Of a DNA stretch of 64,000 nucleotides, positions 28,250 to 35,909 are shown in pieces. Location of the stretch: assembly GCA_900768845.1 (NCBI GenBank), contig CAAGEK010000020.1, positions 14,011-78,010 on the forward strand, in the 5' to 3' direction. This DNA is from Alphaproteobacteria bacterium. Its GTDB lineage: Bacteria; Pseudomonadota; Alphaproteobacteria; CAAGCB01; CAG-977. The position numbers were made by a program, and so were the translations under genes. Numbering within the stretch: the first letter of the stretch is position 1; every line of letters starts with the position of its first letter. The notes below the pieces were generated by a model. That model ran no database searches, was not told the origin of the DNA, and saw nothing but the letters and a program-made list of their open reading frames with translations.

Positions 28250-29626
28250 ATGAAACGCTTCGGTTTTCATATTTTACTGGCTTTCGCCCTGATTTGCCCC
28301 GCCGTCCCCGCCGCAGCCAAAAATGCGAAAAAGGAAGAGGCTCCCCAAATCTCCGTTTATCATTACCTGAACATCTTCAGCGAAACGTTCAAACGGGCGA
28401 AAACGGATTATGTCGAAGAAGTCCCCGAACAAAAGCTGATCGAATACGCGATCAATGGCATGCTGTCTTCGCTGGATCCGCATTCGTCCTATCTGAACGC
28501 GGAAATGTTCAAGGAAATGCAGGAACAGACCAAAGGCGAATTCGGCGGTTTGGGAATCGAAGTCACCATGGACAACGGGTGGATTAAAGTCATTTCCCCG
28601 ATTGACGACACGCCCGCGTTCAAAGCGGGAATCAAAGCCGGCGATTACATCACCCATATCGACGGAACCGCCGTTTTGGGACAGACGCTGACCGAAGCCG
28701 TCGATAAAATGCGCGGCCCCGTCAATACAAAAGTCAAATTGACCGTCCGCCGCAAGGGACAGGACGCATTCGACGTCACGTTGGAACGCGCCGTCATCAA
28801 AATCCGTTCCGTGCGCACCGAAAACAAGGGTAACGTCGGTTACATCCGCATTTCCTCTTTCAGCGACACGACAACGGCCGACGTGAAAAAAGCCGTCGAA
28901 AAAACGATGAAAGAACATCAGGAGGGTTTATCCGGATTTGTTTTGGATTTGCGCAACAACCCCGGCGGATTGCTGGATCAGGCGGTTTCCGTGACGGATC
29001 TGTTCCTGAACGAAGGGGAAATCGTTTCCACGCGCCCGCGCCGTCCCGAAGAAACCCTGCGTTACAGCGCGACGAAAGGCGATATTACGAACAACATCCC
29101 CATCGTCGTTTTAATCAATGAAGGATCCGCTTCGGCCGCGGAAATCGTCGCCGGTGCGTTGCAGGATCACAAACGCGCCGTCATCGTCGGTACGCGTTCG
29201 TTCGGAAAAGGATCCGTGCAAACCGTCATTCCCGTCAGTTCGGGAATCGGAGCCATCCGGATAACGACCGCACGTTATTACACGCCTTCAGGCCGTTCGA
29301 TTCAGGCCAAAGGCATCGAACCCGACATTGTCATTCCTCCCGCCCATGTCGAATATTTCGCCCAGCGTTCCGACGATTTCGCCGAAGCGGCCTTACCCAA
29401 TGCACTGGCGAAGCAGGATGAGGCGAAAGACAAAGCGGACGCCAAAACGCAAAAAAACGTAAAAGGGAAAAAATCCCAAAAAGGGCAAAAAGACAAACAA
29501 AAAGATAAAAAGGAAAAAGAACCCGATCCTTTCGCTGAAAAGAAAGAGGAAAAGAAAATCGAGGATTATCAGCTGGATCGCGCAATCGACATCGTTCGGG
29601 CGATGGGAATTTACAATTCCAAATAA
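28250..29626 (+). CDS. ctpA: Carboxy-terminal processing protease (S41 family) with lysine-rich C-terminal tail
   Basis: PDZ plus S41 catalytic region (VVLINEGSASAAEIVAGALQDHKRAVIVGTRSFGKGSVQ). C-terminal KDKADAKTQKNVKGKKSQKGQKDKQKDKKEKE tail. Confidence 0.85.
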   Translation: MKRFGFHILLAFALICPAVPAAAKNAKKEEAPQISVYHYLNIFSETFKRAKTDYVEEVPEQKLIEYAINGMLSSLDPHSSYLNAEMFKEMQEQTKGEFGGLGIEVTMDNGWIKVISPIDDTPAFKAGIKAGDYITHIDGTAVLGQTLTEAVDKMRGPVNTKVKLTVRRKGQDAFDVTLERAVIKIRSVRTENKGNVGYIRISSFSDTTTADVKKAVEKTMKEHQEGLSGFVLDLRNNPGGLLDQAVSVTDLFLNEGEIVSTRPRRPEETLRYSATKGDITNNIPIVVLINEGSASAAEIVAGALQDHKRAVIVGTRSFGKGSVQTVIPVSSGIGAIRITTARYYTPSGRSIQAKGIEPDIVIPPAHVEYFAQRSDDFAEAALPNALAKQDEAKDKADAKTQKNVKGKKSQKGQKDKQKDKKEKEPDPFAEKKEEKKIEDYQLDRAIDIVRAMGIYNSK

Positions 29627-29647
29627 AGCGCAAGGAACGGTTCTCAG

Positions 29648-31066
29648 ATGGTTTTTTCCAAGGACGCGAACACGGATTCCCCTTTCGCCGTAAAACCGAA
29701 AGAAAAAGGAAAGCGGCTGTTTTTCCTCGCCCTTTCGGTTTTCGTCGTTTCCCTTGCGGCGGCGGGAGCGGCGGGATGGGACGTTTATCAAAAAAATAAA
29801 AAGCCTTTTTCGGCTTTTACGATAACGTCCCCGTTTTTGCGTTCCGAAAAAGCCCTGATCAATCCGCAACCCATGTTCCGGCAGGATGACGGCCCCGCAT
29901 CTCCGACACTGGCGGATTCGTTCAAAGGACAATCCAAAACGGCCGAAGAAAAACTTGCCGGACCGAAAAACATCGATGAAGCGTTGAAATCGGCCATGTT
30001 GAATTTTCCTCCGCAACAGGAAATCGACGACAAGGCTTCCATAAAGGAAAATCCGGATCTGCCGATGGCCGACGCTCCCGAATCCGGCGATCCCGCCCCC
30101 GAAAAGGAACGCGTCATCGACATCGGGGACGAATTCGGCCTGCGCCGTCCGCCTTTGCCGCGCCCCGATCTCGTTTCAAGCGAAGGATTTACCGCGTCTT
30201 TGCCGAAATTCAATAAAATCAAGGACGCCCACCATTCCGGCGTAATCGCTTTGGACATCATAAACCCCGTGGAAGAATTGCAGGAGGAATCGCGCTACGG
30301 AAAAATCCCCGTCAAATCGGAAAACGGGGAAACGCCTTATCAAACTTATGCGCGCCCGTATGAAGAAACGCCTCCTTCGCCTTTCATCGCCGTTTTGATT
30401 TCCGGATTGGGAATGCGCAAAAACACGACGACGGCGGCTTTGTATGCTTTAAAACCGGAAGTTTCCCTCTCATTCAGCCCCTATTCCGAACAATTGGGAA
30501 ATTATGTGTCCGAAGCCCGCAAATCCGGTCATGAAACGCTTTTGGATCTGCCGATGCAACAAGGCGTGTTTCCCGAAACCGATCCGGGGCCGTTGGGATT
30601 GGTATCGGGGTTGCCCGAAAAGGAAAACAGGAAACGTTTGCACAGGACGTTGGGCAAGGATGTCGCCTACATCGGCGTCAGCGCATCGCCCGAGGAAACT
30701 TTTTCTTTCAAAACGAATCAAATGGGGGCGTTCGCCAAAGAAATCCGCGATCGGGGATTGATTTACATCGACGGGACGGACGACGCCGACCTGCCGCTGT
30801 ATTCGGGGGCTTTGCGGCCGGACGTGCATATTACCGACCATTTCTACCGCTCCGCCATCCGGACTCAATTGGAATATGCGGAAAAAACGGCCAAAAAAAA
30901 GGGATACGCCTTCGTCCGTGCGGAAACGGCTCCGATTGTTTTGCTGTGCATACAGGAATGGATGGATTCCTTCGTTCCCAAAGACAAAGACGGCGAACGC
31001 GTTCCTGAAATCACATTCGTTCCTCTTTCCTATTACGCCACGGAGGTTTTAAAAACGCGAAAATGA
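29648..31066 (+). CDS. Divergent polysaccharide deacetylase (YibQ-like) with ~230-aa N-terminal extension and TM anchor
   Basis: C-terminal half FIAVLISGLGMRKNTTTAALYALKPEVSLSFSPYSEQLGNYVSEARKSGHETLLDLPMQ matches the YibQ family. N-terminal TM plus a proline/acidic linker. Confidence 0.7.
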   Translation: MVFSKDANTDSPFAVKPKEKGKRLFFLALSVFVVSLAAAGAAGWDVYQKNKKPFSAFTITSPFLRSEKALINPQPMFRQDDGPASPTLADSFKGQSKTAEEKLAGPKNIDEALKSAMLNFPPQQEIDDKASIKENPDLPMADAPESGDPAPEKERVIDIGDEFGLRRPPLPRPDLVSSEGFTASLPKFNKIKDAHHSGVIALDIINPVEELQEESRYGKIPVKSENGETPYQTYARPYEETPPSPFIAVLISGLGMRKNTTTAALYALKPEVSLSFSPYSEQLGNYVSEARKSGHETLLDLPMQQGVFPETDPGPLGLVSGLPEKENRKRLHRTLGKDVAYIGVSASPEETFSFKTNQMGAFAKEIRDRGLIYIDGTDDADLPLYSGALRPDVHITDHFYRSAIRTQLEYAEKTAKKKGYAFVRAETAPIVLLCIQEWMDSFVPKDKDGERVPEITFVPLSYYATEVLKTRK

Positions 31067-31542
31067 CGGAAAAACTCTATCGTCCCAACGCCGGCATCAT
31101 GCTGATGAATAAAAACGGCAAGATTTTTGCGGCTCATCGTTGTGATTCGCGAAGAAAAGCATGGCAAATGCCTCAGGGCGGCATCAACAAGGGCGAAGAT
31201 CCTTTGGACGCGGCGAAACGCGAACTGTTTGAAGAAACCGGCGTCCGTTCCGTTTCCCTGATTGCGGAAAGCACACGGTGGTATGCTTATGATTTTCCCG
31301 CCGACGTAACGTTTGTCAGTGAAAAGAAAAAATCTTTCGCCGGACAGACTCAAAAATGGTTTTTGTTCCTGTTTGAAGGCGACGAACAGGAAATCAACCT
31401 GAACCGCCCTCATCCGGAATTCGACCGGTGGCGATGGGAAGACGCGGAAAATATGCCCGAGCTGATCGTCGAATTTAAAAAGGACGTGTACCGTCAGGTC
31501 GTCGAGGAATTCATGCCTTTCATCGATGCGTACCGTTCTTGA
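31063..31542 (+). CDS. rppH: RNA pyrophosphohydrolase (NUDIX)
   Basis: NUDIX box GGINKGEDPLDAAKRELFEETGV. ATGA overlap with the upstream gene. Confidence 0.8.
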   Translation: MTEKLYRPNAGIMLMNKNGKIFAAHRCDSRRKAWQMPQGGINKGEDPLDAAKRELFEETGVRSVSLIAESTRWYAYDFPADVTFVSEKKKSFAGQTQKWFLFLFEGDEQEINLNRPHPEFDRWRWEDAENMPELIVEFKKDVYRQVVEEFMPFIDAYRS

Positions 31543-31638
31543 AATCCGGTATTTTCCGTAAAAGGTTTCAAAAGCGGATTGACGCCCGCAAAAATTTATA
31601 CGAACTTATAAAAAATAAACGGTAAGGAGAAAATCATC

Positions 31639-32296
31639 ATGACAAAATCAGGAAAAGCAGTCGTCATATTTCTGACGTGGGCTTTAACGGGATGCGCCGC
31701 CGTACGAAATTATCAAACAGCGACATTCGCCTCTTTGAACATTATCCCCGATACGGTAACCGCGGACGTCAATTTTTTTTGAAAAGGGCGAAGATTTTCA
31801 AAAGAAACGCAGAAGGGAGCTGAACGGACGTTATTTTTATGACAAATTTCTGGCCGATGAACTCATCAAGCGTATGGAAAAAAGAGGATGGAAACGGGCT
31901 TCGGACAAGAATGCCGAATATGCTTTGAATATCAGCCTTACCGATGAAGAGTCGGATTCCGCCGGCATTGTTACCTATTTCAAAGGCATTGTTTACGCTT
32001 TGTACAAAACAAAAGACCGCCCTCCCGTCATCATGGGGGGAATCGCCAATGATTCTTCCGATCTTCATGATTTGGACTTTATCAACGAAGCCCTGCCCAT
32101 CATTGACAAAGAAATACAATCGAAAAACGCCTATCAAAGACACTTATGGACTTGTTCCGACAACCGGAACGGAGCTTCCCGCACCGAATGTTACATGGAA
32201 GAAATCAACCCCGATTTTCCGTCCGAGTATATTGAAATAAAAAATATGAACTATTTAAAAACGCGCTTGGTTTCCGAACCGAACCGGTTTTTTTGA
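31639..32296 (+). pseudogene. Lipoprotein gene interrupted by a frameshift at a poly-T(8) tract (47-aa lipoprotein ORF 31639-31782 continues in the +1 frame to 32296); candidate phase-variable gene
   Basis: AAGGAGA RBS and lipobox LTGCAAV. Reading through with 7 instead of 8 T's joins ...DVNFF to EKGEDFQKKRRRELNGRYFYDKFLADELIKRMEKRGWKRASDKNAEY... (listed ORF 31874..32296) without any stop. Confidence 0.65.
31773..31780 (+). repeat. Homopolymeric T(8) tract at the frameshift point of the lipoprotein gene
   Basis: TTTTTTTT inside the coding sequence; a length change of -1 (or +2) restores the long reading frame. Confidence 0.8.
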
Positions 32297-32438
32297 AAAA
32301 CGCACCGCAAACCTTTTTTGACGGGAGCGGAAGTTTTGTTTCAAACCGAAGCTGTTTTCCGCCGCGGACGCTTATGTATTCCGTTTTTGCCCGTTTTGTC
32401 TTATACTAAGGAAAACAGTGCCGGAATCGAAGTTTTAA

Positions 32439-33164
32439 ATGACAAAACAAGAACGGAAAAATATCGATTTCATATTTGAACAATGCCCCGAATTGTTGTC
32501 AACGGGCAGCAAAGAGCAGTATGCCCGATATGTAAAAACCATATTTCCATCAAGCTCTACACATTCGATATTTTTTCACGGCGGCAGGAAAGGTATCGAA
32601 AAATTCATCGCCCCCTCGGATAAGGACGCTTTTAAAAAGAACAAAGGCGTTCACAGCGGAACAAAAGATTACGGCATTTATTTCACTGCGGATAAATCTT
32701 TGGCGAAAAATTACGCGAAGGGACATCCGAAAAACAACCGCCGGATTTATGCGGTCGTGCTGAATATGCAAAATCCGCTTAAAACGGATGCGTGGTTCGC
32801 TTTGAACATCCGGCGGGCTTTAGGGGATAAAAGCGTGTTCAATCCGCAAAGCATCACACAGGACGATTACGACAGATTCATCGCCCCGCAAAATCACGAC
32901 AGCGTTTTATGGCACGGAGAAAAAGGCGAGGCCGTCGTTTTCGATCCTGAACAGATTCATATTCTGGGATCCGGAAAAGACGTAAGAATGTTCGGAAAAT
33001 GGGTTGAAATTCAAGAACGGCTTGCCGGAAAAAAACGCGAGGCGTTTTCCTTAAAACCGTTTTCTCCGAAAGAAACCGTGCAAGAAACGGCGCGTCCGGC
33101 GTGTCGGGACATCCCTTCTTCAAGCGTATTGAATCTGCTTCGCCGAAAAAGGCAAAACGGCTGA
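32439..33164 (+). CDS. Stand-alone PARP-like (H-Y-E type) ADP-ribosyltransferase catalytic domain protein
   Basis: FFHGG (His47), DYGIYFTADKSLAKNYA (Tyr81, Tyr92; compare PARP GKGIYFADMVSKSANY) and GEAVVFDP (Glu164; compare PARP NEYIVYD). His-to-Tyr and Tyr-to-Tyr spacings (34 and 11) match PARP1. No signal peptide. Confidence 0.6.
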   Translation: MTKQERKNIDFIFEQCPELLSTGSKEQYARYVKTIFPSSSTHSIFFHGGRKGIEKFIAPSDKDAFKKNKGVHSGTKDYGIYFTADKSLAKNYAKGHPKNNRRIYAVVLNMQNPLKTDAWFALNIRRALGDKSVFNPQSITQDDYDRFIAPQNHDSVLWHGEKGEAVVFDPEQIHILGSGKDVRMFGKWVEIQERLAGKKREAFSLKPFSPKETVQETARPACRDIPSSSVLNLLRRKRQNG

Positions 33165-33283
33165 TTTTCGCGCCGCCATCCTTTTCAAAATCCGTTGTAT
33201 CCTCAACGGCCAGTCGTCTAAAGCCGTTCCAATGGAACGCACCGGCATACCCCGTTTTTTCCCTTTATGCGCCTGTTTTTTTC

Positions 33284-33874
33284 TCAAATGCGGGCGCGCA
33301 ATGCCGCTTGAATCGTGCCGTCGTCCAGATAATCCAATTCCCCTCCGACGGGAATCCCGCGGGCAAGGGATGAAATCTTCACGTTTTTCCCCTGCATCCG
33401 TTCGGAAATGTAATGTCCCGTCGTCTGACCGTCGACGGTGGCGGGCAAAGCCAAAATCAATTCGACGGATTCCATGGTGCGAATCCTGTTTTCCAAGACC
33501 TGCAAGTGCAAATCGTCCGGCCCCGTCCCTTCAATCGGCGACAACAGCCCGCCCAAAACGTGATACCTGCCGCGAAACGCCCCCGAACGTTCCATCGCCC
33601 ACAAATCGGACACGTCGCGAACAATGCAAATGACGTTTTCATCACGGCGGACGTCCGAACATATCGAACACGGATCGTATGTGTCCAAATTACCGCAAAC
33701 GGAACACGTTTTTACGTTCGCCAACACGTCTTCCATTGCGGCGACCAGCGGAACCAAATGCGTTTCACGCTTTTTGATCAGATACAAAGCCGCACGGCGC
33801 GCCGAACGGGAACCGAGCCCCGGCAGTCGGGACAACAGCTTTATCAGCGTTTCAATTTCCGTGCCGCTCAACAC
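33284..33874 (-). CDS. recR: Recombination protein RecR
   Basis: C4 zinc finger CSVCGNLDTYDPCSIC, Toprim region, 196 aa. Confidence 0.9.
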   Translation of the reverse strand: MLSGTEIETLIKLLSRLPGLGSRSARRAALYLIKKRETHLVPLVAAMEDVLANVKTCSVCGNLDTYDPCSICSDVRRDENVICIVRDVSDLWAMERSGAFRGRYHVLGGLLSPIEGTGPDDLHLQVLENRIRTMESVELILALPATVDGQTTGHYISERMQGKNVKISSLARGIPVGGELDYLDDGTIQAALRARI

Positions 33875-33886
33875 TCGCCCCCTTTG

Positions 33887-34186
33887 TTAAAAAGGCAGAC
33901 CGAAACCGCCCGTCACGGACTTCATTTCCTCGCCCAGACGCTCTTCGGATTTTCCGCGTGCGTCGTTAAACGCGGCGACCAGCAAATCTTCCAGAACGCC
34001 GACGTCGTCCGTCAAAGAAGGATCGATCGAAACTTTTTTCACAACGCCGCGACACGTCATGACAACCTGAACAAGTCCGCCGCCCGAATTTCCCGTCACC
34101 TCGATTTTTGCGGCTTCGTCCTGTTTGGACATTAAAACCTGTTGCATTTCCTTTGCTTTTTTCAACAGCTCGTTAAAATCGGGCAT
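33887..34186 (-). CDS. ybaB: Nucleoid-associated protein YbaB/EbfC
   Basis: MPDFNELLKKAKEMQQ... ~100 aa, start at the internal Met of the listed ORF. Lies between dnaX and recR. Confidence 0.85.
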   Translation of the reverse strand: MPDFNELLKKAKEMQQVLMSKQDEAAKIEVTGNSGGGLVQVVMTCRGVVKKVSIDPSLTDDVGVLEDLLVAAFNDARGKSEERLGEEMKSVTGGFGLPF

Positions 34187-34187
34187 T

Positions 34188-35909
34188 TCATTCCTCCTCA
34201 TCGTGTAAAACCGGCATATCACCGTCATCCGCTTCGGGCAAATCGACTTCGATACCCTTTTGCAAGCGGATCGTGTCAATGCGCGCCGCCGGAAAAGTTT
34301 TGATCACCGCCGTAACCAAAGGATGCACCGACAGGGCTTTCCTTAAATTCTCTTCATTTTTTTTGGCTTCCTGCACCAAAGTCATTCCGCCGGCACGGTT
34401 GACGACGGAAACCACCCAGCGTCTTCCCGTCCATTCCGAAAGCTTTTCCGTCAGTTCGCCCGCCAAATTCGCAGGAGCCTTTTCCAGCGGATAAAAATCG
34501 ATGCGGCCGAATTCGAAATGAACGATACTGACATAGTTTTCCAAATTGAACGCCAGCATCATCTCGTTTTGCTTATACGCATACGCGACGACATCCGCCA
34601 AAGAATTCAAACGGGGCTGGCTTTTGGAAACGGCCGGCGACGGGACGGACAACCCGCCCGCGGCGGCGCGGATCCCGCTCCAATCGGATTGCGCCGGCGC
34701 GCCGGAAGACGATGCGGGGGAAGAAGACGGAAGCGACGCCGGCATTTTTCCCGAACGCAACGATCCGACAACCTCCGCCGGCGAAGGCAGATCCGCCGCA
34801 TACGCCAGACGGATCAGCAACATTTCCGCGGCCTGCTTTGCGGAAGGGGCGGTCTGCGTTTCGGAAACGCCCTTTAACAGCATTTGCCATGTACGGGTCA
34901 AAACCGGCATTGACAGCTTTTTTGAAAGCTCCGCCCCGCGCTCCCTTTCGGAAGCGGCCATTGACGGGTCGTCCGCCAGTTCGGGGGCGATTTTCGTCCG
35001 CGTCAGCCAATGCGTCAAATCCAGCAAATCCTGCAAAACGACCAAAGGATCGGCTCCCGACGCATACTGTGCGCCGAATTGTTCCAACGCCGCCTTGATG
35101 TCGCCCTGCATCACCCGTTCAAACAAATCGAATATGGCGGCGCGGTCGGCCAGACCGATCATCGCACGCACGAATTCCGCCGTCACGTTGCCGCCGCCGT
35201 GCGCAATCGCCTGATCCAACAAAGACAAACCGTCGCGCACGGAACCGTCCGCGGCTCGCGCAATCAAACGCAAAGCCTCCTCTTCGGCCTGCAACCCCTC
35301 TTTTTCAATGATGCCGGCGAAATGGGCTGCCAGCTCGTCAACTTCGACGCGGCGCAGGTCGAAACGCTGGCAACGCGACAGAACCGTCGTCGGCACTTTA
35401 CGGATTTCCGTCGTCGCAAAAATGAATTTGACGCGTTCGGGCGGTTCTTCCAACGTTTTCAAAAGCGCGTTGAACGCCTGCTTCGTCAACATATGGACTT
35501 CGTCGATGATGTAGATTTTAAAACGGGCGGACGTCGGGTTGTAACGCGTCGTTTCAATGATTTCGCGCACATTGTCAACACCCGTGTTGGACGCCGCGTC
35601 GATTTCAATGACGTCGACATGGCGGTCTTCCGCAATCGCCCTGCAATGTTCGCAAACGCCGCACGGCTCGGTCGTCATGCCGCCTTTTCCGTCCGGACCG
35701 ACACAGTTCAACGCACGGGCGATGATACGCGCCGAAGTCGTTTTGCCCACGCCGCGAATGCCGGTCAGGATGTATGCTTGAGCCAAACGTCCGGTGTCAA
35801 TCGCATTTTTCAACGTCCTGACAAGGGCTTCCTGACCGATCAGGTCGGCAAAGGTCGTCGGACGGTATTTCCGCGCCAACACGCGGTATTTCTTATCGGT
35901 ATCGGTCAT
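34188..35909 (-). CDS. dnaX: DNA polymerase III subunits gamma/tau
   Basis: AAA+ clamp-loader motifs GIRGVGKTTSARIIARALNC, zinc module CGVCEHC, SRC/IIDEVHML, 573 aa. Confidence 0.9.
   Translation of the reverse strand: MTDTDKKYRVLARKYRPTTFADLIGQEALVRTLKNAIDTGRLAQAYILTGIRGVGKTTSARIIARALNCVGPDGKGGMTTEPCGVCEHCRAIAEDRHVDVIEIDAASNTGVDNVREIIETTRYNPTSARFKIYIIDEVHMLTKQAFNALLKTLEEPPERVKFIFATTEIRKVPTTVLSRCQRFDLRRVEVDELAAHFAGIIEKEGLQAEEEALRLIARAADGSVRDGLSLLDQAIAHGGGNVTAEFVRAMIGLADRAAIFDLFERVMQGDIKAALEQFGAQYASGADPLVVLQDLLDLTHWLTRTKIAPELADDPSMAASERERGAELSKKLSMPVLTRTWQMLLKGVSETQTAPSAKQAAEMLLIRLAYAADLPSPAEVVGSLRSGKMPASLPSSSPASSSGAPAQSDWSGIRAAAGGLSVPSPAVSKSQPRLNSLADVVAYAYKQNEMMLAFNLENYVSIVHFEFGRIDFYPLEKAPANLAGELTEKLSEWTGRRWVVSVVNRAGGMTLVQEAKKNEENLRKALSVHPLVTAVIKTFPAARIDTIRLQKGIEVDLPEADDGDMPVLHDEEE

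Follow-up and report, generated by a model that had tools for sequence, protein, structure and literature searches.

A one-base expansion of a T run splits a lipoprotein gene in one clone of an uncultured gut alphaproteobacterium and probably marks a young null allele

Positions 31639-32296 of the window, by which we mean the whole 64-kb stretch of DNA that was analysed, hold a single gene for a lipoprotein of ~218 aa, which a +1 insertion within a run of T's has split in two. An earlier note on this DNA had offered the resulting run of eight T's (T8) as a candidate for slipped-strand phase variation and had named a fixed pseudogene and a sequencing homopolymer error as alternatives. From a comparison of the tract among public metagenome contigs, we think it probable that T8 is a young null allele, fixed in one clone, which arose by replication slippage at an ordinary hot spot in a dispensable accessory gene, and that it is not a dedicated phase-variation switch. 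Phase variation found no support, since the length of the tract follows lineage exactly and the tract is neither enriched nor conserved. The fixed pseudogene fits best, and it is a young one, since it has acquired no further disabling mutations.

The letters around the tract are GTCAA-TTTTTTTT-GAAAA, read as the codons GAC GTC AAT TTT TTT TGA AAA GGG, and the first base of the premature TGA (31780-31782) is the eighth T. Removal of one T (T7) or addition of two (T10) gives one unbroken frame of 218 codons that stops at a TGA at 32294-32296; a T9 variant stops after 61 codons. When the repaired 218-aa frame was searched against 5.8 billion proteins, one cluster was found, whose representative, the intact 218-aa protein P0001, is 98% identical over a full-length alignment. 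That cluster contains five intact 218-aa variants (P0001 and P0004-P0007) together with exactly the 47-aa and 140-aa fragments of the window, and the identical 47-aa product (P0003) has been called on other T8 contigs. Because T7 or T10 restores the 218-codon frame and intact 218-aa homologues exist, we conclude that the two open reading frames are parts of one gene.

All that the earlier note had read from the letters holds: the T8 run is present, the 47-aa ORF ends at the TGA that the run creates and has both a lipobox and a strong ribosome-binding site 9 nt before its ATG (Table 1), and translation confirms that a T7 frame continues into the downstream ORF (31874-32296) for 218 codons. The N terminus, MTKSGKAVVIFLTWA-LTGC, has the positive n-region, the hydrophobic h-region and the lipobox ([LVI][ASTVI][GAS]C) of a substrate of Lgt and LspA. 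No Shine-Dalgarno sequence of its own precedes ORF 31874-32296, and a scan for promoters and terminators around the lipoprotein gene gave nothing that exceeded shuffle expectation. The natural end of the gene, CGG TTT TTT TGA AAA (32286-32296, with a T7 run at 32288-32294), is nearly the same as the premature stop, AAT TTT TTT TGA AAA; this resemblance is probably a coincidence.

Table 1. Features of the split lipoprotein gene and its surroundings, in window positions
Feature	Position	Strand	Basis or remark
NUDIX hydrolase, RppH type (upstream neighbour)	31063..31542	+	PF00293, E 2.6e-24
Shine-Dalgarno-like AAGGAG	31624..31629	+	9 nt 5' of ATG; read from sequence
Lipoprotein signal peptide MTKSGKAVVIFLTWALTGC, lipobox LTGC at codons 16-19 (31684-31695)	31639..31695	+	translation
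5' gene fragment in window strain, 47 codons, then premature TGA	31639..31782	+	translation
T8 run (T7 plus one inserted T)	31773..31780	+	spans codons Asn45-Phe46-Phe47; makes TGA stop
3' gene part, stop-free in the +1 frame	31781..32296	+	contains listed ORF 31874-32296 (140 aa)
ADP-ribosyltransferase ART-PolyVal, 241 aa ('PARP-like' gene of the earlier note; downstream neighbour)	32439..33164	+	PF18760, E 1.7e-11; weak PARP match
Intergenic T7 run, T6 in 5/5 other strains compared	33276..33282	+	multi-strain alignment
recR (neighbour beyond ART gene)	33284-33874	-	

The location that had been given for the gene, beside a PARP-like gene and between rppH and recR, is also correct, and all loci of the window species share this arrangement. 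The ART gene matches phrog_21376 as well (E 5.5e-7) and aligns to the middle of a 1,664-position PHROG polyvalent-protein profile. No homologue of it was found in the 80 rppH loci of other species, and in strain L099 a 2-bp insertion, at the site that corresponds to window 32742, disrupts it. The ART-PolyVal gene stands alone, with the lipoprotein gene on one side and recR on the other, and has the behavior of an accessory gene. The spacer between the ART gene and recR is itself a variable spot among strains: ~170 bp are added at window 33175 in strains L099 and L100, and a 10-bp stretch at window 33233 is missing from L001, L002 and L100. On the short metagenome contig L003 (698-1172), rppH is called as two 84-aa pieces, the sign of either one more lesion peculiar to a strain or an error of assembly at low coverage.

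The earlier note had called for a comparison of tract length, and we carried this out on the consensus contigs of public metagenomes. Thirteen contigs (L001-L008 and L097-L101), divided among four haplotype groups, have the intact gene with T7; over ~6.6 kb these groups are 98.0-98.6% identical to the window. T8 was present on seven contigs from separate assemblies (L009/L016, which are one and the same contig, and L010-L015), whose names follow three styles (scaffold_, NODE_..._cov and k127_). Six of the T8 contigs form one haplotype, without a single difference over the ~860-bp gene region, and L015, which begins 3' of the ATG, was checked at the tract only. Longer comparisons with the window gave 100% identity for L009 (6,423 bp), L010 (3,784 bp) and L011 (3,341 bp). 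In no haplotype group did we observe a mixture of T7 and T8. Within the protein cluster, no intact variant carries the Pro128/Ile159 of the window strain, and there are no split variants other than those of the window. A scan of JGI metagenome contigs with a pattern that tolerated differences in tract length returned no match. The outcome is thus neither T8 everywhere with further lesions nor T7 everywhere, the two results that the earlier note had set against its proposal; tract state tracks clonal descent, with seven T8 contigs of one haplotype and 13 T7 contigs of four others.

Homopolymers are sometimes miscounted and the assembly behind the window is of the metagenome type, so that one might suppose the gene to be intact, with T7, in the real genome. 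However, T8 was recovered independently in the seven assemblies, always in the same haplotype, with T7 in the 13 others, and other 8-nt runs in the same contigs do not show such a difference. Because the separate assemblies also differ in naming style, a local assembly error is excluded. We reject sequencing error in general as an extremely improbable account of the tract.

At least two of the T8 samples carry PRJNA217052 (FijiCOMP), one is labelled BRIT16, and four are ERZ266xxxx assemblies. FijiCOMP is a closed cohort that has been studied for person-to-person strain transmission (bioRxiv 10.1101/540252). Judged by their shared haplotype, the T8 contigs represent one clone, which has been sampled in several gut metagenomes and some of whose samples, at the least, are from the Fiji cohort. 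A single circulating clone is enough to account for the repeated occurrence of T8. The T8 samples may all be of one cohort, so that clone and host population are confounded.

In the 64-kb window, A/T runs of exactly 8 nt are under-represented, with 16 present versus ~65 expected (64.9 +/- 11.7 in dinucleotide-preserving shuffles), and there are no A/T runs of 9 nt or more. In many genomes, selection against slippage-prone A/T runs becomes evident at a length of 9 nt (Baranov et al. 2005, PMC1088944), a limit that the lack of runs of 9 nt or more in the window fits. The sharp cut-off at 8 nt is consistent with selection of this kind. A crude screen of the whole window for homopolymer-split genes was swamped by ordinary gene junctions, and an alignment of six strains over window 28639-35125 was used instead as the control for hypermutability. 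It contains two single-base homopolymer indels, both in the window clone: the change from T7 to T8 in the lipoprotein gene and a change from T6 to T7 at 33276-33282. The latter is a second +1 homopolymer expansion in this clone, within 1.5 kb of the first. Six other runs of 7-8 nt (at 29451, 29790, 30893, 32288, 33029 and 34357) have the same length in all six strains; the run at 30893 is an A8 within a gene of the Polysacc_deac_2 family (472 aa) and that at 34357 is a T8 within dnaX, both conserved genes. Because these six nearby runs are invariant, runs of 7-8 nt are not generally unstable in the window species.

The T8 haplotype differs from all T7 haplotypes at eight codons, six of them with synonymous changes and two with non-synonymous changes (T128P and L159I), and no second stop or indel is present 3' of the tract in the T8 lineage. 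Because there is no second lesion and the changes in this lineage are mostly synonymous, the break is recent. The substitution pattern indicates that the gene evolved under purifying selection along the T8 lineage and then broke.

In the course of events that we propose, replication slippage would have added one T to the T7 run of AAT-TTT-TTT (Asn45-Phe46-Phe47), upon which the frame would meet a TGA at once. The product would be a prolipoprotein of 47 residues, 28 after cleavage of the signal peptide. The remaining 171 codons are out of frame and lack a ribosome-binding site of their own, and any product of the downstream 140-codon ORF would lack a signal peptide. The T8 allele is fixed in one clone, and all other strains keep T7 and the intact gene. 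Such an allele has the marks of a frameshift pseudogene, namely a premature stop relative to intact alleles that are 98% identical, a shift that is confined to one clone, and no conserved recoding signal. It resembles the strain-specific pseudogenes that are formed by homopolymer frameshifts, which likewise involve a one-base expansion of a run and an immediate stop in one clone, with the gene intact in sister strains. Beside these ordinary pseudogenes it shows nothing unusual; it is young (no secondary lesion, and a ratio of synonymous to non-synonymous changes of 6:2), and hence it is still revertible.

A different view of the same allele is that useful amounts of the full-length protein are still made in the T8 state, either because the ribosome slips by +1 at UUU-UGA or because transcription slips on the U8. 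In +1 frameshifting of the prfB type, the tRNA, which would be tRNA-Phe in the window, re-pairs one base further on during slow reading of the stop codon. The window shares with this type a slippery codon directly before an in-frame UGA, and AAU-UUU-UUU-UGA-A would permit perfect +1 re-pairing at the stop. Unlike prfB, however, the sequence upstream of the slip site, ACCGCGGACGUCAAU, holds no Shine-Dalgarno-like stimulator, and the shifted arrangement is not conserved, since all other strains have the unshifted T7. At the level of the ribosome, measurements on test genes of E. coli have put non-programmed frameshift suppression at 1-10% (PMC10861913), which would favor some read-through. At the level of mRNA, slippage in transcription can rescue genes that are broken at A/T runs (Baranov et al. 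2005, PMC1088944), and in the window, too, an A/T run sits at the break point, but T8 is one base below the 9-nt length at which, in many genomes, slippage becomes evident. Furthermore, transcription errors at A/T runs are chiefly +1 insertions, with deletions seldom seen at homopolymers (PMC5574713), whereas a repair of T8 needs -1 or +2. Given the lack of a stimulator, a run of less than 9 nt and the predominance of +1 errors in transcription, a leak of full-length product from T8, ribosomal or transcriptional, is conceivable and probably minor; as the explanation of the locus, recoding is very unlikely.

The lipoprotein belongs to a very small uncharacterised family that is sometimes found on mobile elements. 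HMMER, run exhaustively against 1.84 billion cluster representatives, returned six proteins in all at E <= 0.001, each of 207-229 aa with a signal peptide and a lipobox. The invariant columns of the family are Cys19 (the lipidation site, kept across 10 family members), Cys172, Cys184 and G83-W84. Searches with the lipoprotein against Pfam, NCBIfam, PDB sequences, PHROGs and PADLOC gave no significant match. From an alignment of 10 sequences, AlphaFold gave a model (mean pLDDT 68, pTM 0.67) that Foldseek matched to chains of PelC with E-values of 2.4e-5 to 1e-3, TM-scores on the query of 0.29-0.38 and 7-18% identity. With the small alpha/beta outer-membrane lipoproteins of the PelC, DUF330 (XCC0632) and Neisseria 3bf2 types, the protein of the window would have in common that it is a lipoprotein of similar core size with a weak likeness in fold. 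It differs from PelC in that its locus has no pel-type operon context, the neighbors being rppH, the ART gene and recR. The resemblance of the model to PelC may be taken as a weak hint of fold class and is not a functional assignment.

The nearest named relative of the window organism, an uncultured gut alphaproteobacterium, is 'Acetobacter sp. CAG:977'. The closest species that we found is another uncultured alphaproteobacterium (L017), whose RppH is 84% identical and whose orthologue of the lipoprotein, ~40% identical, adjoins recR. The gene is absent from the next closest relative, 'Acetobacter sp. CAG:977' (L018). When the intact protein was searched against the GTDB species-representative genomes, among which the window species is not included, there were 98 pattern matches and none was confirmed. 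A third species has the lipoprotein gene within a region that resembles an integrative element, with genes for a Toprim primase/DUF7146, an HTH repressor, a phage-type integrase and SSB; one source names one variant a Caudoviricetes protein.

Disruptions of the gene are not limited to the window species. In the sister species, an intact gene of 229 aa is present on most contigs; the loci compared included L103:2001-2690. In the single strain L017 (11328-12017), the start codon ATG is changed to ATA, a lesion that slippage cannot reverse. Another single strain, L102 (2001-2432, on a 497-kb contig with 82x coverage), has a frameshift from A6 to A5 that truncates the product to 143 aa. In the third species, L104 (1003-1452) has A6 right after the start codon where L106-L109 (3001-3639) have A7, again a frameshift; this case is less certain, as the Logan contig L104 has many gaps and diverges more. 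A candidate fourth truncation, P0043 (L105), proved to be a scaffold gap of N's rather than a mutation and was left out of the count, as was P0036 (166 aa, on a 1.9-kb contig). Disruption in the family is thus sporadic and mixed in type, with each case in a single strain and with homopolymers as the commonest site, as mutational bias would predict.

The total of six proteins at E <= 0.001, the lack of a confirmed match among the GTDB representatives and the absence of the gene from L018 mark the locus as accessory. The mobile-element setting in the third species, together with the frameshifted ART neighbor in L099, leads us to infer that the lipoprotein gene is dispensable, and it behaves like accessory cargo. 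The same observations could also be read as a selected loss of function, in which a null allele spread because losing an exposed lipoprotein paid off, for example in escape from phage or host antibodies, with the homopolymer as the easiest route to a knockout. This would suit the presence of the T8 clone in seven assemblies, the single-strain disruptions of orthologues in the window species and two related species, the accessory nature of a gene that is on a mobile element in one species, and the knockout of the adjoining ART gene in one strain. Yet each null allele is limited to one clone and to a minority, with most contigs intact, and strain sharing within a closed cohort explains the seven T8 samples without selection. 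We consider selected loss quite unlikely.

The proposal of phase variation has to be weighed against the same body of evidence. Homopolymer contingency loci are familiar from host-adapted bacteria, in the poly-G/C tracts of the opa-associated and pgl genes of Neisseria and of surface-structure genes of Campylobacter and Helicobacter. What the window shares with these loci is a homopolymer towards the 5' end of the coding sequence of a surface-type gene, where a change of 1 nt toggles the frame. If this were a true contingency locus, T7 and T8 would switch reversibly by slipped-strand mispairing to give ON and OFF subpopulations, and the window strain would have been sampled OFF. A T7/T8 polymorphism was in fact found within one species, and the tract lies in the 5' third of the lipoprotein gene with the structure needed to toggle its frame. 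The absence of a second lesion and the signature of purifying selection in the T8 lineage would look alike in a phase-variable OFF state, as a single slippage reverts it. In addition, two other members of the family are frameshifted at A6/A7 runs, and the fact that three of the four family disruptions are at A/T runs can be read as a habit of the family rather than as mutational bias.

Nevertheless, the state of the tract is perfectly linked to haplotype, with the seven T8 contigs belonging to one clone, the 13 T7 contigs to four groups and no group mixed, which suggests that rapid switching is absent. In contrast to the poly-G/C tracts of Neisseria, Campylobacter and Helicobacter, the tract in the window is an A/T run of just T7 or T8, short for a switch, and it is invariant in each haplotype group; runs of this kind are under-represented in the window and stable in the neighboring genes. 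Nor has the tract been kept over longer times: the orthologue of the sister species has CATTTTTATG at this site (CAT TTT TAT GAA, L017) and thus no tract, and the ~15-residue insertion in which the tract sits is present in 2 and missing from 4 of the six aligned family clusters. Finally, one orthologue was disrupted by a point mutation of the start codon, beyond repair by slippage. A true contingency locus is therefore unlikely, and phase variation is possible as slow reversible switching alone. Since consensus contigs were compared, the T8 samples may contain a T7 minority.

A wider form of this idea is that T7/T8 together with the A6/A7 runs of the orthologues would constitute a low-rate reversible ON/OFF switch of a surface lipoprotein family associated with mobile elements, and that some host populations would favor OFF, for example because it allows escape from a phage or from host antibody. 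Though we regard this as doubtful, and a shade more so than a contingency locus at T8 itself, it would mean that an uncultured lineage of gut Alphaproteobacteria has slipped-strand phase variation and, with it, a phase-variable antigen. To our knowledge, there is no described example of slipped-strand phase variation in this lineage of gut commensals.

We return to the young null allele as the reading that we prefer. The T8 locus is another instance of a well-known kind of pseudogene, formed by a frameshift at a homopolymer, and it cautions against calling phase variation simply because a surface-protein gene is frameshifted at a homopolymer. Contigs of public metagenomes could serve here for the comparison of tract length, and they show that the state of the tract follows clonal descent. 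The family to which the lipoprotein belongs, which has no match at the sequence level in any library searched, may merit a separate look.
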